From contig JAJPHT010000035.1 of assembly GCA_021325135.1 (NCBI GenBank), positions 1-17,903 of the forward strand: a stretch of 17,903 nt of DNA, in the 5' to 3' direction. Made by a program: the position numbers and the translations under genes. Under the pieces are notes generated by a model, which was not told the DNA's origin, did no database searches, and was given only the letters and a program-made list of their open reading frames with translations. Below are positions 1 through 15,879 of this stretch, one piece after another. Within the stretch, counting starts at the first letter, position 1. Each line of letters begins with the position of its first letter. This stretch comes from Pseudomonadota bacterium. Its GTDB lineage: Archaea; Thermoplasmatota; SW-10-69-26; JACQPN01; JAJPHT01.

Positions 1-377
1 AACTCCATGGCGCGCGGCACGCAGTAGTTCTCGTGGCTGCCGTAGGAGACGCCGTCGGGGTCCGTGTTGTTCTTGAACGCGCTGACCTTGACGTTGTGGA
101 ACTCCTCCAGCTTCATGCGGGCGAGGTCCACGATGCGCTCGCCCGCCTTCTCGTAGATGAGCATCTCGCGGGCGTTGAGCGTCTCGGGCGTGCTGATCTC
201 TAGGTGGCCCACGTCGAAGTAGGCGCGGCTGCCGTTCTTGAGCCACTCGCCCTGCGCGGCGAACTGCGACTTGCGGATCACTTCCAGGGCGAGCCGGTGC
301 GGGTCGATGCCGCGCGGGTTCATCTGGTGCGAGAAGAGGGTGTACTCGTGCTCGCTGCCCATGATGCGGGGCTTCAC
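1..377 (-). CDS. PafA/Dop family (Pup ligase/deamidase, carboxylate-amine ligase fold) protein; 5' part only, runs off the left edge
   Basis: Manual translation from GTG at 377: MKPRIMGSEHEYTLFSHQMNPRGIDPHRLALEVIRKSQFAAQGEWLKNGSRAYFDVGHLEISTPETLNAREMLIYEKAGERIVDLARMKLEEFHNVKVSAFKNNTDPDGVSYGSHENYCVPRAME. It matches the PafA/Dop motifs RIMGxExE, LxNGxRxYxD, H-x-E-x-S/T-x-E, KAGE, KNNxD and SYGxHENY. An AT-rich TATA-like tract lies at 402-413. Confidence 0.92.
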   Translation of the reverse strand, partial: MKPRIMGSEHEYTLFSHQMNPRGIDPHRLALEVIRKSQFAAQGEWLKNGSRAYFDVGHLEISTPETLNAREMLIYEKAGERIVDLARMKLEEFHNVKVSAFKNNTDPDGVSYGSHENYCVPRAME

Positions 378-464
378 GCACTCGCCAGGTGGCGGGCAGA
401 CTATTTCCCTTTTGCGAGAAGCGAGGCCGCTCCCTTCATGCGGGGCGCGGCATTTCCGCCGGGC

Positions 465-1073
465 GTGGGCGCCGAGGTCACCTGCACGGCGGAGCACGCC
501 GGCGAGCGCGGCGAGGGCAAGGCCATGCTGGAGGGGGACAAGCTCCTCTTCCGCGGGCCCTTCCGCGTCGCCATCCCGCTGGCGCAGGCCAAGGTCCGCG
601 TCGAGGGCGATGCCCTCGTGGCGGACTGGCCAGGCGGCCGCGCGTCGTTCCTGCTGGGGGCCAAGCGCGCGGCGGCGTGGGCGGAGAAGATCCTCCACCC
701 GCCGACGCGCCTCGACAAGGCGGGCGTCAAGGCGGGCACGCGCGTCTCCCTCGTGGGCCTCACGGAGAAGGGCTTCGCCGCGGAGCTTCGCGCGGCGGGG
801 GCGAAGGTCGTGCGCGCGGAGGCGGACGTGACCTTCGCGCAGATCGACGATCCCAAGGACCTGGGAGGCATCGCGAAGCTCGCCAAGGGGCTGCCCGCCG
901 AGGGCGCGCTGTGGGTCCTCTCCCCGCGCGGGCGGCCGGAGATCGCGGACACCGTGGTCATGGCGGCCGCGCGGAAGGCGGGCCTCGTGGACACCAAGGT
1001 CATGCGCTTCTCGGAGACGCACACGGCGCTGAAGCTCGTCTGGCCGCGCGAGGCGCGCGCGAAGAAGCCTTAA
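465..1073 (+). CDS. DUF3052-like domain protein with N-terminal extension
   Basis: Likely start is GTG 465 (MGAEVTCTA...), because the track extension to 204 overlaps the pafA/dop gene. The C-terminal half has LDKAGVKAG...GALWVLSPRG...AARKAGLVDTKVMRFSETHTALKLV, resembling DUF3052. Confidence 0.65.
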   Translation: MGAEVTCTAEHAGERGEGKAMLEGDKLLFRGPFRVAIPLAQAKVRVEGDALVADWPGGRASFLLGAKRAAAWAEKILHPPTRLDKAGVKAGTRVSLVGLTEKGFAAELRAAGAKVVRAEADVTFAQIDDPKDLGGIAKLAKGLPAEGALWVLSPRGRPEIADTVVMAAARKAGLVDTKVMRFSETHTALKLVWPREARAKKP

Positions 1074-1097
1074 GTCCCGGCCGACCGAAGGCATGGC

Positions 1098-1625
1098 GTG
1101 GACAATCTTGTCGCCGCCGAGCTGGACGGCGCGCGCGACTACACCGCGCTCTTCCGGCTGGTGAAGCGCCTCGTGGAGGCGCGCCTGCGCAAGTCGCGCG
1201 CCGGCATCATGCTGGGTCTGGCGCCCCTGGGCCTCTCGCCCGAGGGCTTCCTGGGCGGCTACTTCGTCCTGGGCTCCAACGCCATGATCCTCAACAAGGA
1301 CGTGCTCAACTACGTGAAGGTCCACGAGCCCGCGCACCACAACGCCTACGCGTTCCACGTCCTCCTCCACGAGTACCTCCACACGCTGGGCTACTTCCGC
1401 GAGGACGAGGTGCGCCCCATGGCCTACGACATCTCCCGCGACGCGCTGGGGCCTGAGCACCCCGCGACGCTCATCGCCGCCGCCATGGTGCCCGGCATGG
1501 AGGGCGAGGCGCCCGCGTTCTTCCGCAAGCTGGTGTACCCGCAGTTCGGCTGGGCCCCCGCGCGCCGGCCCGCCATCGAGATCGTCAAGGGGTTCGACCC
1601 CGACGCGACGCCTTACATCGGATGA
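1098..1625 (+). CDS. Hypothetical HExxH (zincin-like) metallopeptidase-type protein
   Basis: 175 aa containing HVLLHEYLHTLGYFREDEVR, with typical codon usage. TTAAG box at 1070-1074. Confidence 0.7.
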   Translation: MDNLVAAELDGARDYTALFRLVKRLVEARLRKSRAGIMLGLAPLGLSPEGFLGGYFVLGSNAMILNKDVLNYVKVHEPAHHNAYAFHVLLHEYLHTLGYFREDEVRPMAYDISRDALGPEHPATLIAAAMVPGMEGEAPAFFRKLVYPQFGWAPARRPAIEIVKGFDPDATPYIG

Positions 1626-1676
1626 CCATTCTCGGACTCGCGCGCCCAATCCTGGCTCATCCTCGTCGGAACGCCT

Positions 1677-1922
1677 ATGGCCGCGTCGGGCGCTTTCCGG
1701 CGCGTGAAGACGCTCAGCTTCCCGCTGGCCGTGCTCGACGCCGCGAACGTCGAGGACCTGCTGGACCTCGTGACCTCCATGGACGGCGTGGTGGCCGCAC
1801 TGGTGGAGCGCGACGCGCCCGGCCTCCAGGTCCTCGTGCGCAGCGACCACAGCGCGCTCCTCGTGCGCGAAGGCCTGCGCTCCGCGCTGGCGGCCGGCTG
1901 GGCCGGCGCGGCGCACGCCTGA
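1677..1922 (+). CDS. Small hypothetical protein (81 aa)
   Basis: ATG-started ORF with plausible codon usage filling the gap between two + strand genes; no recognisable motif. Confidence 0.5.
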   Translation: MAASGAFRRVKTLSFPLAVLDAANVEDLLDLVTSMDGVVAALVERDAPGLQVLVRSDHSALLVREGLRSALAAGWAGAAHA

Positions 1923-1976
1923 GCGCGGGCGCCGATTCCGCAGCGTTCAAAGCGCGCCCGCGCCTGGCTCTCCCGT

Positions 1977-3233
1977 ATGCGCGCCGCGCTCCTGCTTGTC
2001 GCCCTGCTCCTCGCCGGCTGCGCCGCGCCCTCGGCCCCCACCACGACAACGCCGTCGTCGACGCCCTCTTCGACCCCCGCGCCGACGGAGACTCCGTCCT
2101 CGCCCCCGGCGACGACGCCCACCCCCTCGGGGAACGCGGACGCCCTGACGAGGTTCACGGGCTGCAAGGGCTCCGGGCCCGTGACGTTCGCGCAGTCGCC
2201 CATGCGCGTGAGCGACTTCGGCAACATGCTCCCCTACGGCGTCGTCGTGGGCGGGCACGTGACCCCCATCGACCACATGTACTTCTCTCCGGCGAACGTC
2301 AGCCTGGGGCGCGACGCCTACGAGGTGCGCGCGATCGGCGACGCGGTGATCTACAGCATCCAGCCGCGCGACGTCAACGTCGAGTCGGGCGCCGCGAAGC
2401 TGCGCGAATGGCGCGTGGACATGGCGCACACGTGCACGTTCACCAGCTACTTCGACCTGCTCACGAGCCTCGCGCCCGACTTGGAGGCGGCGTACAACGC
2501 GAGCCGCGCGGGCAACCAGGGACCCCTCTCCGTGCCGGTGAAGGCGGGCCAGCTCGTCGGCCGCATCGGGGCCCAGACGCTGGACTTCGGCGTGTACGAC
2601 TACAACGTCACGCTGCCCGGCTTCCTCGTGCCCTCGCACTACGACCGCGAGCCGTGGAAGGTCCACACCGTCGACCCCTTCCCGCACTTCCCGCCGGACG
2701 TGCGCGCGGCCATGCTGGCGAAGATGCTGCGCACCGCGGAGCCTCGCGCGGGGAAAATCGACTGGGACGTGGACGGCGCGCTCGTGGGCAACTGGTTCAA
2801 GGTGGGCACGAACGGCTACGCGGGCGTCGATCCGTCCAACTACTGGGAAGGGCACCTGAGCGTCTCGCCCGACACCTACGATCCCTCGCACGTCGTCTTC
2901 AGCATCGGCGACTTCAACGGGACACCGCGGCAATTCGGCGTCAAGGGGAACCCGGACCCGGCGAAGGTCACGCCCGCCTCCGGCCTCCTGAAGTGGGAAT
3001 TGGTGACGTTCGACGAGTACGACAACAAGACAGGCGAGCGCGGCTTCTCGCGGGACGGCACGACGGGGATCCAGCCCGGCGACGGCATCACGGCGCGCAA
3101 CGACGACCAGGTCGTGGGCGTCGCGCTGCTCCAGATGACCGGGCCTCGCGCGCTGAAGCTGGAGGTCTTCCCCGGCAAGGCCGCGGCTGACGTGACGGGT
3201 TTCGACGCCGACGCCTGGAGCTACGAGCGCTAG
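1977..3233 (+). CDS. Putative lipoprotein with Thr/Pro/Ser linker and beta-rich extracellular domain
   Basis: Signal peptide with lipobox LLAGC and linker APSAPTTTTPSSTPSSTPAPTETPSSPPATTPTP. The globular domain contains GHVTPIDHMYF and VKAGQLVGRIG. Confidence 0.8.
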   Translation: MRAALLLVALLLAGCAAPSAPTTTTPSSTPSSTPAPTETPSSPPATTPTPSGNADALTRFTGCKGSGPVTFAQSPMRVSDFGNMLPYGVVVGGHVTPIDHMYFSPANVSLGRDAYEVRAIGDAVIYSIQPRDVNVESGAAKLREWRVDMAHTCTFTSYFDLLTSLAPDLEAAYNASRAGNQGPLSVPVKAGQLVGRIGAQTLDFGVYDYNVTLPGFLVPSHYDREPWKVHTVDPFPHFPPDVRAAMLAKMLRTAEPRAGKIDWDVDGALVGNWFKVGTNGYAGVDPSNYWEGHLSVSPDTYDPSHVVFSIGDFNGTPRQFGVKGNPDPAKVTPASGLLKWELVTFDEYDNKTGERGFSRDGTTGIQPGDGITARNDDQVVGVALLQMTGPRALKLEVFPGKAAADVTGFDADAWSYER

Positions 3234-3688
3234 GCGGACGCCACCGGGGGCTCGGGCTCCGTGCGGGGGCCGTACCTGACGAGCCCCAGGAGCGCGACGA
3301 CGAGGCCCAGCTCCACCGTCTTCGTGAAGAGGTCCATGAGGCCGATCTCCTCCTTCTCGCCCGCCATGGGGCCCGCGGGGACGCCCACGAAGCGCGTGTA
3401 CGCCCAGAGCGCGAGCAGGAGGACGTTGCCCACGAGGCCGCAGGCGAGCATGAAGCGCCACCCGCTGGGCCACCACGCGGGCCGCGGGCGCGGGCTGTAG
3501 CCCTCCCAGAGGAGGATCGCGCCGTTGGCGGCCTGCGCGACGAAGCAGACGACGAAGAACGCGCCGTAGCCCCACCACTCCTCGAAGTGCTCCGGCGCGA
3601 CGGCCAGGTGCAGCAGCCCCGCGATCGCGCTGAGGCTTCCGGCGACGAGGACGAGGCGCCGCGTCGGCGCGTCCCAGAGGGGGTGCAC
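3230..3688 (-). CDS. Hypothetical integral membrane protein (about 4 TM)
   Basis: Hydrophobic segments; AGLLHLAVAPEHFEEWWGYGAFF motif; GTG start about 25 nt from an AT-rich tract. Confidence 0.7.
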   Translation of the reverse strand: MHPLWDAPTRRLVLVAGSLSAIAGLLHLAVAPEHFEEWWGYGAFFVVCFVAQAANGAILLWEGYSPRPRPAWWPSGWRFMLACGLVGNVLLLALWAYTRFVGVPAGPMAGEKEEIGLMDLFTKTVELGLVVALLGLVRYGPRTEPEPPVASA

Positions 3689-3742
3689 GCAAGGGCCACG
3701 GGGGCAGGAGGGATATGCCTCTTTTCCCCACTCCGGCTGGCC

Positions 3743-4108
3743 CTACGCCCTGGACCAGCGCAGGGGCTTGCCCCCGTCGCGCCTGAGGACGCCCTGCGCC
3801 TCCAGGTCCAGCTGGACGCACTTGACCCACCACTCGACCTTCTCGCCGCCGGGCCAGTGCTCCGCGGGCGCCACCTTGCGCGCGGCGTCCCACATCTCGC
3901 TCTGCGTGAGCCCCGCGCCCTTGGGGACGACCTGGAGAAGCACCTTCCTCATCGCGTCGTACTTCGTCCGGTCGACGGTGGCGGTGTAGCCGGGCACGTT
4001 GGGCGTGCGCACCTGCACGCGGTCGCCCGCGGGCGCGGCGGCCTTCTTCGCCGCCTTCCTCGGGGCGGCCTTCTTCGCGCTCTTCTTGGCGCTCTTCTTC
4101 GCGGCCAT
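3743..4108 (-). CDS. DUF6958-like winged-helix protein with Lys/Ala-rich N-terminal tail
   Basis: ATG 4108 gives MAAKKSAKKSAKKAAPRKAAKKAAAP, followed by VDRTKYDAMRKVLL...GLTQSEM...WWVKCVQLDLEAQG. Confidence 0.7.
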   Translation of the reverse strand: MAAKKSAKKSAKKAAPRKAAKKAAAPAGDRVQVRTPNVPGYTATVDRTKYDAMRKVLLQVVPKGAGLTQSEMWDAARKVAPAEHWPGGEKVEWWVKCVQLDLEAQGVLRRDGGKPLRWSRA

Positions 4109-4186
4109 GGGCGGGCCAGCGTGGCGGCTCCGCTTCAACGTGGCGAAAGGCGGGCGGGGCGCAGCGAAGCGCCTCCGCGCGCGACA

Positions 4187-4633
4187 TCAGCCGGAGTCGA
4201 CCTCGGCGTCGTCGTCGCAGACGTCGTGGTCGTAGACGCCCAGCAGGATGGACTGCCCGACCACGGGGAGCGGGTGGCTCGCGCCGTCGTAGCAGACCTC
4301 GGCGCCGCCGACGCCCGCCACGAAGGCGTGGACCTCGAGGTGGTCGTCACCGGGGGCGGTGCAGGCGTTGCCGCCGGGGATGCCCTTGGGGTCGTTGAGG
4401 AACGCCAGCAGGGCCGCGGCGGCGCCGGAGCCCGTGGGGTTCGTGGGGTCGCTGGGGAGGACGGTGTTGTAGACGGTGCCGTCCTCGACCTCGACCTCAG
4501 CCTCGCCGCCGGTGCCGTCGAGGTCGTAGCACTCGCCGCTGATGCCCGCGTCGACGGGGTCGGGCTGGGCCGCGTGGGCATAGGCCGGGATCAGGAGAAA
4601 GGCCGCTAGCAGATACAGGATGCGGAGCTTCAT
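4187..4633 (-). CDS. Secreted acidic hypothetical protein with 4 Cys
   Basis: ATG 4633 gives the signal peptide MKLRILYLLAAFLLIPAYAHA; the mature part is Asp/Gly-rich with four Cys. Confidence 0.7.
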   Translation of the reverse strand: MKLRILYLLAAFLLIPAYAHAAQPDPVDAGISGECYDLDGTGGEAEVEVEDGTVYNTVLPSDPTNPTGSGAAAALLAFLNDPKGIPGGNACTAPGDDHLEVHAFVAGVGGAEVCYDGASHPLPVVGQSILLGVYDHDVCDDDAEVDSG

Positions 4634-4736
4634 GGGTGGTTCCCCGCGCCGGCCAGGCCCGCGGGGAAGGATATCATTGTTGGAGATCGGATGTGAAATC
4701 GCACGAAGCCCCGCCTCAGATAACGGATTGATCCAC

Positions 4737-4798
4737 AAAAAGAGGGCATCCGAGAAGGAAAAGGGGGCGCGCGGGCGCGGCGCGGGGCCGCGCCCGTG
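4737..4798 (-). terminator. Possible terminator downstream of arc
   Basis: GC hairpin CGGGCGCGGC/GCCGCGCCCG (about 4772-4796), followed on the minus strand by CCCCCTTTTCC and CTCTTTTTG pyrimidine/T tracts. Confidence 0.4.
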
Positions 4799-4809
4799 AC
4801 GATCCGGTT

Positions 4810-5013
4810 CTCACATCACTTCGACGTTGTCGTTCGCTGCAAACCGCGCGCGCTCCCACGGCCGAAGCCTCTCCTCGCGGCCTGAAGGCCGCTCGTCGGG
4901 ATCGGCCTGGTCGCACGCGCGATTTGCGCTGCACGCCAACGTCGAAGTCAAGTTCGGCCTTCGGCCTCACATGACTTCGACGTTGTCGTTCGCTGCAAAC
5001 CGCGCGCGCTCCC
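4810..5013. repeat. Direct and inverted copies of the arc 3' end
   Basis: 4810-4857 matches 4966-5013 at 47/48. 4913-4950 is an inverted copy (31/38). Small hairpins lie at 4877-4892 and 4956-4966. Confidence 0.92.
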
Positions 5014-6499
5014 GCTGCCGCTTCTGGTACACGGACGACTCGACGAGGGCGTGCTCCTTGGACTCCTCCTCGGCGGCCTTGCGCAGGTCCTCGAAGTTGA
5101 GGCCTTCGCGGGCGCGCTCGTGAGAGCCGCGCGGATAGGGCAGCACGCGCTTCACGTAGTTCTTCTTCGCGGTGGTGATGATGCTCTCGATGAGGGCGCC
5201 GGAGATGATGTCCTTGCGCTTGATGGTCTTCACGGACTCCTTGGCCTCGGGGTCCAGCTTGAACTCGACCCACTTGTTGTCGCCGTAGAGCTCCTCGATG
5301 AGCATGCTCTTCATCGTCTCCAGGGCCTTCTCCTTGGAGCCGCCGTTGTCGCGCACGAACGTCTCCTGGAGGGGCAGGTCCTTGGTGAGGTAGATGTCGA
5401 TGATCTGCATCGCGGCCTGCTTGTTGGGACGCTGGATCTCGATGACCTCGTCGAAGCGGCCCGGGCGCAGCAGCGCGGGGTCGATCATGTCGGGGCGGTT
5501 CGTGGCGCCGAGGATGTAGACGTCCTTCAGCGTGTCGATGCCGTCCATCTCCGAGAGGATCTGCGCGATGATGTTCTTCTGGACGCCTGCGCTGTCCTGC
5601 TGGCCGCGCGTCGTGCCCAGCGCGTCGAACTCGTCGAAGAAGATGATGCTGGGCGCGTTCTCGCGCGCCTTGCGGAAGAGCGCCTTGATCATGTTCTCGG
5701 ACTCGCCCACCCACTTGGAGAGGATGTCGGCCACCTTGACGTTGAAGAACGTCATGTCGTTCTCGGTGGCGACGGCCTTGCCGATGAGCGTCTTGCCGCA
5801 GCCGGGCGGGCCGTAGAGGAGGACGCCCTTGGGCGCCTTCAGCTTGATCGCGGCGAAAAGCTCGGGCTCCTTGTAGGGAAGCTCGACCACGTCGCGGATG
5901 CGGTCCAGCGTCTCGTCCAGGCCGCCGATCTGCGCGTACTTCACGTTGGGCGTCTCGCCCAGGAAGAGGTCGCGGATCTCGCTGCTGGGGCGCACCTCCA
6001 GGATGTCCAGCGTGGGCGGCAGGAGGCTGACCTCGTAGCCGATCTTGATCTCGTCGCCCATGCCCGAGGGCAGGTCGATGATCTTCTTCTCCATGCCGTC
6101 GGAGGTGGTGATGACGAGCTTGTCCTGGTAGATGTCGACGACCTTGCCCACGACGCCCTGCTCGTACTGGCGCGTGGAGGCGATGATGGCGTAGGTCTTG
6201 GGGTGGAGCCAGACGTACTGGCCCGTGCGGAGGTCGGACTTCGCGACCTGGCCCACGGCGACCTTGAGCACCTGCGTGCCGTGGCTGACGACGACTTCCT
6301 GGGGCTCCAGGTCGGCGCCTGTCAAGCGCAGGACGTATGCCGAGAGGAGCGGCGGCTCCTTGATCTGGTTGAACTTCTCCTCGTAGGCCTTGACGATGGC
6401 CTGGAGCTCGGCGATCTGCTCCTCCTTGCTGGGCGCGTCGCCGGCGTCGGCGCCGCGCGGGGCGCGGCCGCGCTTCTCCATGTCCCGGTCGTCCTTCAT
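4967..6499 (-). CDS. arc: ARC/Mpa-type proteasome-associated AAA+ ATPase
   Basis: N-terminal coiled coil ending in KEPP, then a beta-rich (OB-like) interdomain. Also present: YAQIGGL...IRDVVELP, Walker A GPPGCGKT, Walker B IFFDEFD, and SRH ATNRPDMIDPALLRPGRFD. The C-terminal region (YLTKDLPL...LYGDNKWVE...KDIISGALIESIITTAKK...GLNFEDL) follows actinobacterial Mpa/ARC rather than PAN. Confidence 0.85.
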   Translation of the reverse strand: MKDDRDMEKRGRAPRGADAGDAPSKEEQIAELQAIVKAYEEKFNQIKEPPLLSAYVLRLTGADLEPQEVVVSHGTQVLKVAVGQVAKSDLRTGQYVWLHPKTYAIIASTRQYEQGVVGKVVDIYQDKLVITTSDGMEKKIIDLPSGMGDEIKIGYEVSLLPPTLDILEVRPSSEIRDLFLGETPNVKYAQIGGLDETLDRIRDVVELPYKEPELFAAIKLKAPKGVLLYGPPGCGKTLIGKAVATENDMTFFNVKVADILSKWVGESENMIKALFRKARENAPSIIFFDEFDALGTTRGQQDSAGVQKNIIAQILSEMDGIDTLKDVYILGATNRPDMIDPALLRPGRFDEVIEIQRPNKQAAMQIIDIYLTKDLPLQETFVRDNGGSKEKALETMKSMLIEELYGDNKWVEFKLDPEAKESVKTIKRKDIISGALIESIITTAKKNYVKRVLPYPRGSHERAREGLNFEDLRKAAEEESKEHALVESSVYQKRQRERARFAANDNVEVM

Positions 6500-6531
6500 C
6501 GGTGATCCGTCGCGGCTAGGGACTTGCTCAG

Positions 6532-6537
6532 CTTAAA
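6532..6537 (-). promoter_or_regulatory. TATA-like box (TTTAAG) for arc
   Basis: TTTAAG on the minus strand about 33 nt upstream of ATG 6499, preceded by purine-rich GAAGG (BRE-like). Confidence 0.5.
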
Positions 6538-6710
6538 GTACCTTCTCCATGGGAAGTGTTCCTCCCGCGCTCGGTCGAGGCCGTCGGCGCCAGGCCCCCA
6601 CGGCCGCGGGCCATCGAACGGGCCCCGTCTCGCGCTCCGCAGGCGGTAGCGCAAGGGGCCCCGCGGAGGAAGGACAACCCTTTTTCCGGGGGCCCCTCCA
6701 TCGCGCCCCC

Positions 6711-7733
6711 ATGGGCGTCGACCTCTCGGACGTCGTGCCGCGCACGCCGCGCACGCTCCAGGATTTCCAGGGGAAGACCATCGCCATCGACGCCCACAAC
6801 GCGCTCTACCAGTTCCTCTCCAGCATCCGCCAGCCCGACGGCACGCCGCTGAAGGACAAGCAGGGGCGCGTCACGAGCCACCTCTCCGGGCTCCTCTACC
6901 GCACGGCGAACCTGGCGGAGTCCGGCATCCGTCCGGTCTACGTCTTCGACGGCAAGCCCCCCGAGCTGAAGCGCGCCACCATCGAGGAGCGCATCGAGCG
7001 CAAGGCGAAGGCCGAGGCCGAGCTGAAGCAGGCCCTGGAGGAGGGCGACGAGGAGAAGGCGTTCAGCAAGGCGCAGCAGACCTCGCACCTCTCCCGCGAC
7101 ATGGTCGCGGAGGCCAAGGCGCTCCTGGACGCCTTGGGCATCCCGTGGGTGCAGGCGCCCGGCGAGGGCGAGGCTCAGGCCGCGCGCATGGCGGAGAAGG
7201 GCGACGTGTGGGCCGCCTCGTCTCAGGACTACGACTCGCTCCTCTTCGGCGCGCCGCGGCTCGTGCGCAACCTGGCCGTCACCGGGAAGCGCAAGCTCCC
7301 CGGCAAGAGCGTGTGGGTCGACGTGGAGCCCGAGATGATCGAGCTTTCCCAGGTGCTCGAGGCCTTGGGCCTCACGCGCCAGCAGCTCGTGGAGGCCGGC
7401 ATCCTCGTGGGCACGGACTTCGACGCGGGCGTGAAAGGCGTCGGCCCCAAGCGTGCGGTGAAGCTCATCAAGGAGAAGGGCGCGCTCATCGACGTGCTCA
7501 CGCAGCTGGAGGCCGACATCCCGGACGCGGACGCCATCCGGGACATCTTCCTGAAGCCCGAGGTCACCGACGACTACTCGGTGAAGTTCGGGCAGGTCAA
7601 CGAGGCCGCCGTGCGCGACGTCCTGGTGCGCCAGCACGACTTCGGCGAGGAGCGCGTCAAGGCGACGTTCCCCCGCTACGCGAAGCTGCACGAGGCGATG
7701 AAGCAGCGCTCGCTGGACGCCTTCTTCGGCTAG
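6711..7733 (+). CDS. fen: Flap endonuclease 1 (archaeal FEN1)
   Basis: MGVDLSD...IAIDAHNALYQFLSSIRQPDGTPL, TSHLSGLLYRT, YVFDGKPP, APGEGEAQAA, SQDYDSLLFG, LVGTDF, GVGPKRA, and C-terminal PIP box QRSLDAFF. The true start is ATG 6711. Confidence 0.97.
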   Translation: MGVDLSDVVPRTPRTLQDFQGKTIAIDAHNALYQFLSSIRQPDGTPLKDKQGRVTSHLSGLLYRTANLAESGIRPVYVFDGKPPELKRATIEERIERKAKAEAELKQALEEGDEEKAFSKAQQTSHLSRDMVAEAKALLDALGIPWVQAPGEGEAQAARMAEKGDVWAASSQDYDSLLFGAPRLVRNLAVTGKRKLPGKSVWVDVEPEMIELSQVLEALGLTRQQLVEAGILVGTDFDAGVKGVGPKRAVKLIKEKGALIDVLTQLEADIPDADAIRDIFLKPEVTDDYSVKFGQVNEAAVRDVLVRQHDFGEERVKATFPRYAKLHEAMKQRSLDAFFG

Positions 7734-7734
7734 G

Positions 7735-8346
7735 TCATCCGAACGCCAGGAGCAGCAGCGCGTCGTCCGGGTCCACGGTGACGTTGCGCGTCTCGGTGGT
7801 CACGACGTGGCTCGACGTGCTGAAGCTCGCGACGTCGCCGAACGCGAGGGGCGAGCCCGTGGAGTTCTGGAAGGCGAGGGCGGAGAGCACGGTGGTCTCG
7901 TCGAGGCTCACGTCGCGCGTCGTGCTGGTTGTGCGCGTCGACTGCGCGTCGACGTCGGAGACGCACCCCAGGAGCGAGGGCCCCAGGCCGCTGCCCGGCG
8001 TGCCCGCGGCGAGGAGCGCCAGCAGGTTGTCGCGGCTCATGCTCATGCGCTGGGTGAGCGCGCCGGAGTTGCTGGACGAGGTGGTGCCGTTCTGGAGGGC
8101 GGCGAGCGTCACGCCCGTGACGCCGTGGTTTTGCAGCGCGAGCCCCAGGACGAGGCTGTCTGGGCCCACGGAGAGGTCCTGCGACGACGCGCTGTCGCTC
8201 GTCTGCACGACGCTGGAGTTGGAGAGCGCCCCTGGAGGCGCGCTGCACGGCAGGGGATCGGTCGTCGAGGCCTGCGCGGGGGCGGGCCCGACCACGAGGA
8301 GGAGAGTAGAGACGGCGAGCGCGCTGAGGAGAGCGGTGCGGTTCAT
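7735..8346 (-). CDS. Secreted Ser/Thr-rich protein with internal repeats (paralog of 8467-8883)
   Basis: ATG 8346 gives MNRTALLSALAVSTLLLVVGPAPAQA. Contains LPCSAP and four repeats of about 16 aa. Confidence 0.65.
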   Translation of the reverse strand: MNRTALLSALAVSTLLLVVGPAPAQASTTDPLPCSAPPGALSNSSVVQTSDSASSQDLSVGPDSLVLGLALQNHGVTGVTLAALQNGTTSSSNSGALTQRMSMSRDNLLALLAAGTPGSGLGPSLLGCVSDVDAQSTRTTSTTRDVSLDETTVLSALAFQNSTGSPLAFGDVASFSTSSHVVTTETRNVTVDPDDALLLLAFG

Positions 8347-13389: not shown

Positions 13390-14286
13390 GTGCAGGGCGT
13401 CTTCGACCTCGTCGGGAATACGCCGCTCGTCGAGATCATTCGCCTCAACCCGCACCGCGCGAGGGGCGTGCGCATCGCGGCCAAGCTGGAGTCGCGCAAC
13501 CCTGGCGGCAGCGTGAAGGACCGGCCAGCGCGCGGCATCCTCCTCGACGCCGAGGCGCGGGGCATCCTCCCCGGGCGCGCGCTCCTGGACGCCACCAGCG
13601 GCAACACCGGCATTGCCTACGCGATGCTCTGCGCGGCGCGCGGCTACGAGTGCCACCTGGTGCTCCCCGCCAACGCGAGCAAGGAGCGGCTGGCCATCCT
13701 GCGCGCCTACGGCGCGACGCTGCACCTCACCGACCCCCTGGAGGGGCAGGACGGCGCCATCGACCGCGCGCACGAGATGGCCAAGGAGGCGCCTGCCCGC
13801 TTCTGGCACGCCGACCAGTACGCGAACCCGGCGAACTCCCTCGCGCACTTCGCCACCACGGGGCCCGAGGTCTGGCGCCAGACGGAGGGCGCGGTCACGC
13901 ACTTCGTCGCGGGGCTGGGCACCACGGGCACGCTCATGGGCACCGCGCGCTTCCTCCGCGAGAAGCGCCCCTCCATCGCCATCGCGGCGGTGGAGCCCTC
14001 GGGCCCCTTCCACGGCATCGAGGGGCTCAAGCACCTGGCCACGAGCCACGTTCCCCCCATCTTCGTCGAGAAGGAGGCCGGGCTCCGCCTGGCGGTCGCC
14101 ACCGAGGAGGCGCAGCGGCTCACGCGGGCGCTGGCGCGGGAGGAAGGGCTCCTGGTCGGGGGCTCCTCGGGCGCCGCGCTGGCGGGCGCGCTCCGGGTCG
14201 CCGCGGAGGCGCCCCCCGGCTCGCTGGTCGTGACCGTCTTCCCGGACGGCGGCGAGCGCTATCTCTCCACCGGGCTGCTTGGGTGA
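13390..14286 (+). CDS. PLP-dependent cysteine synthase family protein (CysM-like)
   Basis: GTG 13390 preceded by GGAG. Motifs: VGNTPLV, KLESRNPGGSVKDR (PLP Lys), ATSGNTG, QYANPAN, GLGTTGT, EEGLLVGGSSGA, FPDGGERYLS. Confidence 0.93.
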   Translation: MQGVFDLVGNTPLVEIIRLNPHRARGVRIAAKLESRNPGGSVKDRPARGILLDAEARGILPGRALLDATSGNTGIAYAMLCAARGYECHLVLPANASKERLAILRAYGATLHLTDPLEGQDGAIDRAHEMAKEAPARFWHADQYANPANSLAHFATTGPEVWRQTEGAVTHFVAGLGTTGTLMGTARFLREKRPSIAIAAVEPSGPFHGIEGLKHLATSHVPPIFVEKEAGLRLAVATEEAQRLTRALAREEGLLVGGSSGAALAGALRVAAEAPPGSLVVTVFPDGGERYLSTGLLG

Positions 14287-15227: not shown

Positions 15228-15359
15228 GGTGGGCTGCGCCGCCTGACGCGGGGGGAACATGGGCAGCGCAGCCCGCCGGAGCTTGGGGGTTCGCACCCCG
15301 CAACCTGCGCGCGAAGCCTGCGAAGGGGGAGTCGGGAGCAGGCCTCTCGCGAACGCGCA
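15228..15359. repeat. Cluster of GC-rich palindromes (REP-like or structured RNA)
   Basis: GGTGGGCTGCGCCGCC...GGCAGCGCAGCCCGCC; GGGGTTCGCACCCC; GCGCGCGAAGCCTGC...GCAGGC...GCGCA. Confidence 0.5.
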
Positions 15360-15453
15360 CTCGCCTGCCTGGTGGATCAAATCCGCGCCGCCGCATCCGC
15401 CCGATTGCTGCCAGGTCCGCAAGGATCAAGCCCGCGGGGCCCGCCTTCCCGCC

Positions 15454-15879
15454 GTGCCCAGGCTCCTCGTCCCGGCCGCGCTCCTCGCCCAGGTCCACGC
15501 GCACGCCCGCGACGGCGCGCCCCAGGAGGTGTGCGGCCTCCTCGCCGGCCGCGCGACGGCCTCGGGAGACCGCGAGGTGCTGCACGCGTTCCCCGTGCGC
15601 AACGCGCACCCGCGCCCCGTGGGCGAGTACCAGCTCGATCCGCAGGAGCAGCTCCGCCTCACGCTGCGCATCGAGGACGAGATGGGCCTGGAGGTCGTGG
15701 GCTTCTACCACAGCCACCCCGCGGGCCCCGCGCGCCTCTCCGCCACCGACGCCGCGCGCGCCTCGTGGCCGGGCGCCTCCTACCTGCTCGTCCACCTCGC
15801 GCCCCACGAAGGGCACCTCAGCGCGCGGTGGGACGCGGAGAAGGGGCGCTTCGTGGGGGAGGAGATTGTTGTGGTGTAG
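15454..15879 (+). CDS. JAMM/MPN+ (M67, Mec-like) metalloprotease
   Basis: GTG 15454: MPRLLVP...QEVCGLLAG...VVGFYHSHPAGPARLSATD, a complete E-xn-HxH-x7-S-x2-D motif. Confidence 0.92.
   Translation: MPRLLVPAALLAQVHAHARDGAPQEVCGLLAGRATASGDREVLHAFPVRNAHPRPVGEYQLDPQEQLRLTLRIEDEMGLEVVGFYHSHPAGPARLSATDAARASWPGASYLLVHLAPHEGHLSARWDAEKGRFVGEEIVVV

Follow-up and report, generated by a model that had tools for sequence, protein, structure and literature searches.

The closest described relative of the system reported here is the actinobacterial Pup-proteasome system (Pup, PafA, Dop, Mpa/ARC and PrcBA). A switch between Glu and Gln is the signature of Pup (PMC2588565), which is linked via its gamma-carboxylate and not via its alpha-carboxylate (PMC6466877), and Mpa requires a C-terminal aromatic motif for opening of the proteasome (PMC12288473). 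Pupylation and unfolding take place without a proteasome in Corynebacterium, as in the disassembly of ferritin by ARC (PMC8223512). UBact and sporadic Pup loci have been described outside Actinobacteria (Iyer et al. 2008, PMC2588565), and single-copy homologues were reported in some Planctomycetes (PMC7947786). We analysed the first 17.9 kb (hereafter the window) of contig C18 of an archaeal genome (3.77 Mb, 71% guanine plus cytosine (GC), 94% complete), whose close relatives are Thermoplasmatota. The window encodes a Pup-ligase-family enzyme and an ARC-type ATPase, and a small protein encoded elsewhere in the genome appears to be their tag. We consider it very probable that these three genes belong to a single system. 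The literature that we searched, which did not cover subscription papers, contained no account of a Pup-like system in archaea.

The archaeal module resembles the actinobacterial system in its enzyme of glutamine synthetase (GS) fold with a full catalytic set and in its ARC-type ATPase, and its tag resembles Pup in being small, with an aromatic residue at -7/-8, a Lys near -3 and a Gly-Gln/Glu that undergoes the Gln/Glu switch. However, there is one enzyme only, which falls outside the PafA and Dop clades and has lost two pocket arginines; ARC lacks the GQYL end; the genes are dispersed in the source genome and no 20S genes are linked to them. Whereas Pup ends at Gln/Glu, in the archaeal tag this residue is internal and followed by a tail of 6-9 residues, and the tag cannot be aligned to Pup. 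A tag and an unfoldase that act without the 20S proteasome are known from corynebacteria, and by analogy this is likely to be the working mode here, although the archaeal host possesses a 20S proteasome and PAN, and in corynebacteria there are two enzymes and the Glu is terminal. The UBact and sporadic loci likewise have a small tag gene adjoining a PafA-family gene, an arrangement that we found in 11 class relatives and in a related order, but not in the source genome. The tags of these loci reportedly end in G[EQ], unlike the archaeal tag with its tail. The SAMP/Ubl systems of archaea, which work with PAN or Cdc48, also tag proteins for AAA+ unfolding, but they use a beta-grasp tag and E1 adenylation at a C-terminal Gly, an unrelated chemistry; four ThiS-family genes coexist with the module in the source genome. 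By its sequence features the module is thus pupylation-like, but it lies outside the definitions of PafA, Dop, Pup and a two-enzyme, proteasome-linked locus.

The enzyme gene is cut by the contig end. Its part in the window, read from 377 to 1, matches Pup_ligase (PF03136) with an E-value of 1.9e-26, starts at a GTG that agrees with the starts of its homologues, and carries E9, E11, D55, E60 and the GSHEN motif without a Dop loop. The reverse strand of C18 overlaps contig C15 by a unique exact 102 bp, and the joined gene encodes 427 residues with no stop, that is, an intact Pup-ligase-family enzyme. Orthologues from the same genus and the same family align across this junction, and a Logan contig from the probable source run extends about 950 nt beyond the left end of the window, past the junction. 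The profile match exceeds the family cut-off, and the fold, as judged from the model of an 87%-identical homologue (P0024; predicted local distance difference test (pLDDT) 95.8), is the GS-type fold of PafA/Dop, with a template modelling (TM) score of 0.90 to Dop 7OYH and of 0.86-0.91 to Dop and PafA among the top eight matches. The catalytic and metal-binding residues (Dop E8, E10, D94, E99, H155, R227, R239 and H241) are kept in 120-122 of the 122 enzymes of the clade. The span from E10 to D94 is 44 residues in 121 of 121, and the Dop loop is hence absent.

PafA-like and Dop-like positions are mixed in this enzyme (determinants from PMC7947786); it is PafA-like only in the absent Dop loop and in the Val-Gly after the catalytic Asp, with Val at the position of Dop His95. 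It scores 240 bits with TIGR03686 (PafA; cut-off 551) and 234 bits with TIGR03688 (Dop; cut-off 492). At the positions of Dop R205 and R221, none of the 122 clade enzymes has Arg or Lys, which 140/140 and 138/140 of other family members do have. PafA R201, the equivalent of Dop R221, is salt-bridged to Pup's C-terminus (PMC8599861); the archaeal enzyme has Thr there. The earlier note on this DNA, made from the sequence alone, had predicted a second PafA/Dop paralog, but none was found in the 94% complete genome by family and alignment searches, and the 19 class relatives that were positive gave one enzyme match each. Its view of a domesticated system gained no support: a quick tree put the enzyme, with its nearest relatives, in an archaeal-context group that is separate from bacterial PafA and from bacterial Dop (Shimodaira-Hasegawa-like approximate likelihood ratio test 99).

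The ATPase proved to be of the ARC type rather than PAN or Cdc48, as had been proposed, with profile, full-length alignment and AAA-domain tree in agreement. Its best profile was TIGR03689 (pup_AAA), which matched residues 36-484 with 359.6 bits and so fell short of the equivalog cut-off (504.75), whereas the PAN profile gave 276 bits over residues 116-375 only. From its N-terminus, which resembles a coiled coil, the protein continues with two probable OB-type repeats, a single AAA domain and an ARC-type C-terminal region, and its alignment to bacterial ARC covers the full length and also the part behind the AAA core. In the AAA-domain tree it branched together with bacterial ARC and away from Cdc48 and from the genome's own PAN (91/78, a moderate support, with one PAN only). 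A Cdc48/VAT identity by phmmer rank, and the Cdc48 that followed the self match in a homologue search with a sister ARC, were set aside as uninformative on family; the two AAA domains add up in the former. ARC ends in VEVM and thus lacks the penultimate aromatic residue and the GQYL/HbYX proteasome-docking motif. The penultimate residue is Val in 14 of the 15 class ARC C-termini read and also in the related order, as against Tyr/Phe in four sister ARCs. The PAN of the source genome (G000:C24:49578 region) ends in SAFA, with Phe in place of Tyr, and both Cdc48 proteins have a penultimate Tyr.

Comparison of gene neighbourhoods revealed a tag gene of 58-60 codons directly behind the enzyme in the 11 class relatives. 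The homologue in the source genome (C15:129867-130049; 60 residues) is located 129 kb from the enzyme, behind a small ribbon-helix-helix-like, regulator-like gene (L071:7530-7871). The tag is composed of a poly-Lys N-terminus, an acidic DFDLDL segment, KG-Q, AGTR and five more residues. The Pup-like Gly-Gln (Gln51) is therefore internal, with a conserved tail of 9 residues. This position is Gln in 20 of 20 sequences of the source class; in the related order it is Glu in 24 sequences and Gln in 5, always before GGDR in a tail of 6 residues. The codons of the tail vary only silently, and the tail is therefore under selection at the protein level. We identify the protein as a tag because of its gene order, the position of its motif and its Glu/Gln switch. 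The small modifier foreseen in the earlier note thus exists, but neither beyond the left edge of the window nor with a G[EQ] end. A search for a small disordered frame with a terminal G[EQ], as the earlier note had advised, would miss it, and a genome-wide scan for short frames with this ending found eight, none of them Pup-like (a LysW-like frame and unrelated ones). Comparisons of the tag with PDB, NCBIfam, a bacterial Pup and the ESM Atlas gave no informative match.

Extra tag copies away from the enzyme were observed (L143-L158, G419-G474; P0325-P0343), with five in one genome (G420). Some keep the 6-residue tail, while others have longer tails after the KG[EQ]-[GA]G-x-R core, which are shared between genomes. 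One type (G426, G429 and G430) ends in QYYF, resembling HbYX, and from this ending such copies might dock on the 20S core.

The module is distributed across the class. Among the 20 class relatives, the enzyme was found in 19, the tag in 19 and ARC in 16; outside the class, the enzyme was present in 1 of 380 sampled Thermoplasmatota and the tag in 0 of 40 searched. A second lineage, which includes RBG_16_68_12 (Ca. Angelarchaeales according to PMC9038741), has a tight arc-enzyme-tag operon, and the order around one of its genomes has the enzyme in 56 of 79 genomes and the tag in 58 of 79. The proposal of a real, host-like Pup-like system in an archaeon is therefore borne out, and for the whole class. 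The nearest relatives outside the clade are four loci (Table 1), each with an ATPase gene, one or more enzyme genes and a small gene; one is from a Nitrososphaerales archaeon and two others have archaeal-type neighbours. Their tags have no tail and end in GE, AE, GQ and GE; the one ending in Ala-Glu (L079) lies on the opposite strand. The first arginine (Dop R205 equivalent) is kept in 5 of 5 sister enzymes and the second (R221 equivalent) in 4 of 5. At least two sister loci or genomes have two enzymes, which are sister enzymes in L083 and lie on separate contigs in G402 (1.1 Mb). The gain of the tail, the loss of the arginines and the loss of the docking aromatic residue coincide on one branch with single-enzyme members, which suggests a functional link between them.

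We propose that a single enzyme joins the side chain of the internal Gln of the tag to target lysines and that ARC unfolds the targets, possibly without a proteasome; the probability of this reading is about one half. Covalent conjugation through the internal Gln/Glu is in itself probable, and if conjugation occurs, there is a good chance that the tail is retained on the product. In the bound state, the poly-Lys N-terminus of the tag would lie on the enzyme's acidic C-terminal domain, and residues 37-44 of the tag on a separate surface. The side chain of Gln51, or of Glu in many relatives, would then be converted to a gamma-glutamyl phosphate for its coupling to a lysine of the target, and the tail would remain on the product as a branch. 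Because Pup is linked via the gamma-carboxylate, the chemistry itself needs no free C-terminus, and an enzyme without the pocket arginines could take an internal Glu/Gln. Since Gln is fixed in the class and no Dop was found, either the same enzyme would deamidate Gln or transamidate it directly, or an unrelated protein would act as the deamidase. The enzyme would probably also remove the tag; PafA alone can depupylate and transfer Pup (PMC5358908). Tagged proteins would be captured by ARC and unfolded or disassembled, perhaps without docking on the 20S core.

A structure prediction is consistent with the binding step. The predicted enzyme-tag complex scored 0.66 and its best control 0.00, and it passed a mark that is reached by 58 of 80 solved pairs and 2 of 110 mismatched pairs. 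The runs agreed in at least 62% of contacts, with a partner pLDDT of at least 56, and confident contacts involved tag residues 4-9, 15-29 and 37-44. Several points weigh against our proposal. Tag residues 45-60, which include Gln51 and the tail, were not confidently placed in the model, and the pass of the complex may reflect a likeness to solved PafA/Dop-Pup structures, though no alignment of the tag to Pup could be made. At the profile level, no similarity between the two was detectable, and a search with the Pfam Pup profile (PF05639) gave no match up to an E-value of 10. The arginine loss, the tail and the change in ARC appear as a single event on one branch and not as repeated co-evolution. 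The R205 equivalent is only presumably a pocket arginine. The use of Gln is the weakest step of the proposed mechanism, as mycobacterial PafA cannot deamidate Pup-Gln (PMC5358908) and the archaeal enzyme has Val at Dop His95.

The tail may instead be a propeptide that a protease, or the enzyme itself, cuts off after Gln51/Glu, with ordinary C-terminal pupylation to follow. Ubiquitin is made as a longer precursor (PMC12288473), extra tag copies bear long and variable tails, and the genome encodes two JAB/JAMM-family proteins and a HExxH protein at window 1098-1625. However, no protease gene accompanies the operon, and the HExxH protein also occurs in three genomes that gave no match to the enzyme, and it could not be found in 4 of the 20 class relatives. 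We regard this explanation as unlikely, for it does not account for why all 122 enzymes have lost both arginines. Pup91 was considered as a precedent for processing of a C-terminal tail by Dop and was dropped, as Pup91 is truncated at the N-terminus. Because of the tight linkage with an ARC unfoldase that every lineage examined shows, and because of the tail-less sister tags, which end exactly at Glu/Gln like Pup, it is also rather improbable that no protein-protein tagging takes place at all. The enzyme would then only modify the small protein, deamidating it or ligating a small amine or a peptide to it; alternatively, that protein would act non-covalently, as a regulator or adaptor between the enzyme and ARC. 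This would agree with the scores of the enzyme, which fits neither PafA nor Dop, with the confident model interface, which is formed by the N-terminal and middle part of the tag and not by Gln, and with the resemblance of the long-tailed copies to leader-plus-core peptides.

Conjugation through the internal residue, which we prefer, is compatible with different fates of the tagged proteins. They could be degraded by the 20S proteasome of the host, either by docking of ARC with a non-standard tail or by handover to PAN or Cdc48. The genome has two alpha and two beta subunits, PAN and two Cdc48 proteins with a penultimate Tyr, and actinobacterial Cpa binds the 20S core without GQYL (PMC8223512). 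We hold this fate for possible but somewhat doubtful, in view of the penultimate Val in nearly all class ARC C-termini read and in the related order (as against Tyr/Phe in four sister ARCs), of the absence of 20S genes next to the module from all archaeal loci fetched, and of the corynebacteria, in which pupylation and unfolding work without a proteasome.

Within the window (Table 1), both genes named in the earlier note were confirmed, on the same strand and 4.6 kb apart, and the fen beside the ATPase is archaeal, passing TIGR03674. Seven unrelated open reading frames, four of them on the opposite strand, lie between the enzyme and ARC genes, so that these do not form an operon in the source genome. 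The arc-fen neighbourhood was found again in several relatives. TATA-like boxes had been claimed for both genes; the ATPase has one, 33-38 nt before its start, and such TTTAAG-like hexamers are scarce in the genome (0.044 per kb), but only a weak purine-rich match precedes the ligase gene. The bacterial order arc-dop-pup-prcBA-pafA, with proteasome subunits just past the left edge, was not encountered. The next gene on C15 encodes a PRC-barrel protein ending in Glu, which is not conserved beside the enzyme in relatives, and unrelated genes follow; the first 15 kb of C15 held no tag, paralog or 20S genes, and the 20S genes are ordinary archaeal ones elsewhere in the genome. The contamination estimate of 5.6% and the cut enzyme gene might raise the suspicion of an assembly chimera or bacterial contamination. 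However, unitig depth is even (20.7-25.7 over 1-7800) and so is GC (0.65-0.73 over 1-7500); both contigs have archaeal neighbours (fen, secY and ribosomal proteins), and orthologues occur in 19 of 20 class genomes. Because of this class-wide distribution the explanation is refuted, with practically no chance left to it.

Table 1. Features of the module in the window and positions of the sister loci
Feature	Position	Strand	Remark
Pup-ligase-family enzyme, 5' part (residues 1-125 of 427)	1..377	-	continues in G000:C15 to position 1009
ARC/Mpa-type AAA+ ATPase, 510 residues	4967..6499	-	profile search, alignment, tree
TATA-like TTTAAG, purine-rich bases upstream, in gap of divergent arc/fen	6532..6537	-	consensus match only
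Duplicated 3' end of arc (last ~50 nt)	4810..5020	.	direct copy 156 nt downstream, degenerate inverted copy between
Archaeal flap endonuclease fen, context marker only	6711..7733	+	
Sister ARC + Pup-ligase + tail-less tag loci	L077:6354-9487; L079:415-3326; L081:1-2118; L083:118-5151		

Some other observations were made around the module. The HExxH protein, encoded on the plus strand, is unannotated, has 175 residues and lies next to the enzyme in the source genus; it was found in 16 of 20 class relatives and 3 of 20 others, a distribution that does not support it as a tail protease. A helix-turn-helix-like gene of about 105 codons, a possible regulator, is located immediately upstream of the enzyme in 10 relatives (L054:9184-9513 and equivalents) and is absent at that place here. 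The gene after the tag, as judged by eye, encodes, in four genomes (L052, L053, L054 and L055), a membrane protein similar to proteases of the presenilin type and, in four others (L059, L061, L065 and L068), a metallophosphoesterase-like protein. A JAB/JAMM-family gene (window 15259-15879, plus strand) near a cysteine-synthase-like gene (about 13400-14286, plus strand) possibly belongs to a sulfur-carrier pathway without a link to the tag system. In an archaeal bin, a short contig (L114; G464:C74) carries a Dop gene of bacterial type (574 bits), which is probably contamination. The spacer between the copies of the arc end holds an element of about 50 nt with 5 further copies in the genome, which has 17 short-range direct repeats of this type; the duplication has the appearance of gene-end copying by a small element, mobile or palindromic, and is probably unrelated to the tagging system.

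The finding would mean a second, non-ubiquitin protein-tagging chemistry for archaea, one that is fixed throughout a class and in most of a further order. Our widest formulation is tentative: a bifunctional GS-fold enzyme would attach the tag through its internal Gln/Glu in a transglutaminase-like way with a branched product, the free tail would diversify into signals, and ARC without its docking residue would remodel the targets, lineage-wide in archaea. With three small genes, it can be tested whether a single enzyme is able to replace PafA as well as Dop, whether a tag of the Pup type has to terminate in its Glu, and whether a tag plus ARC has a role besides proteasomal degradation; the sister loci with tail-less tags are natural controls. 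If the proposal is true, an enzyme that ligates via an internal motif could serve protein labelling. The existence of an archaeal clade distinct from PafA and Dop is relevant, too, to the question of where pupylation arose.

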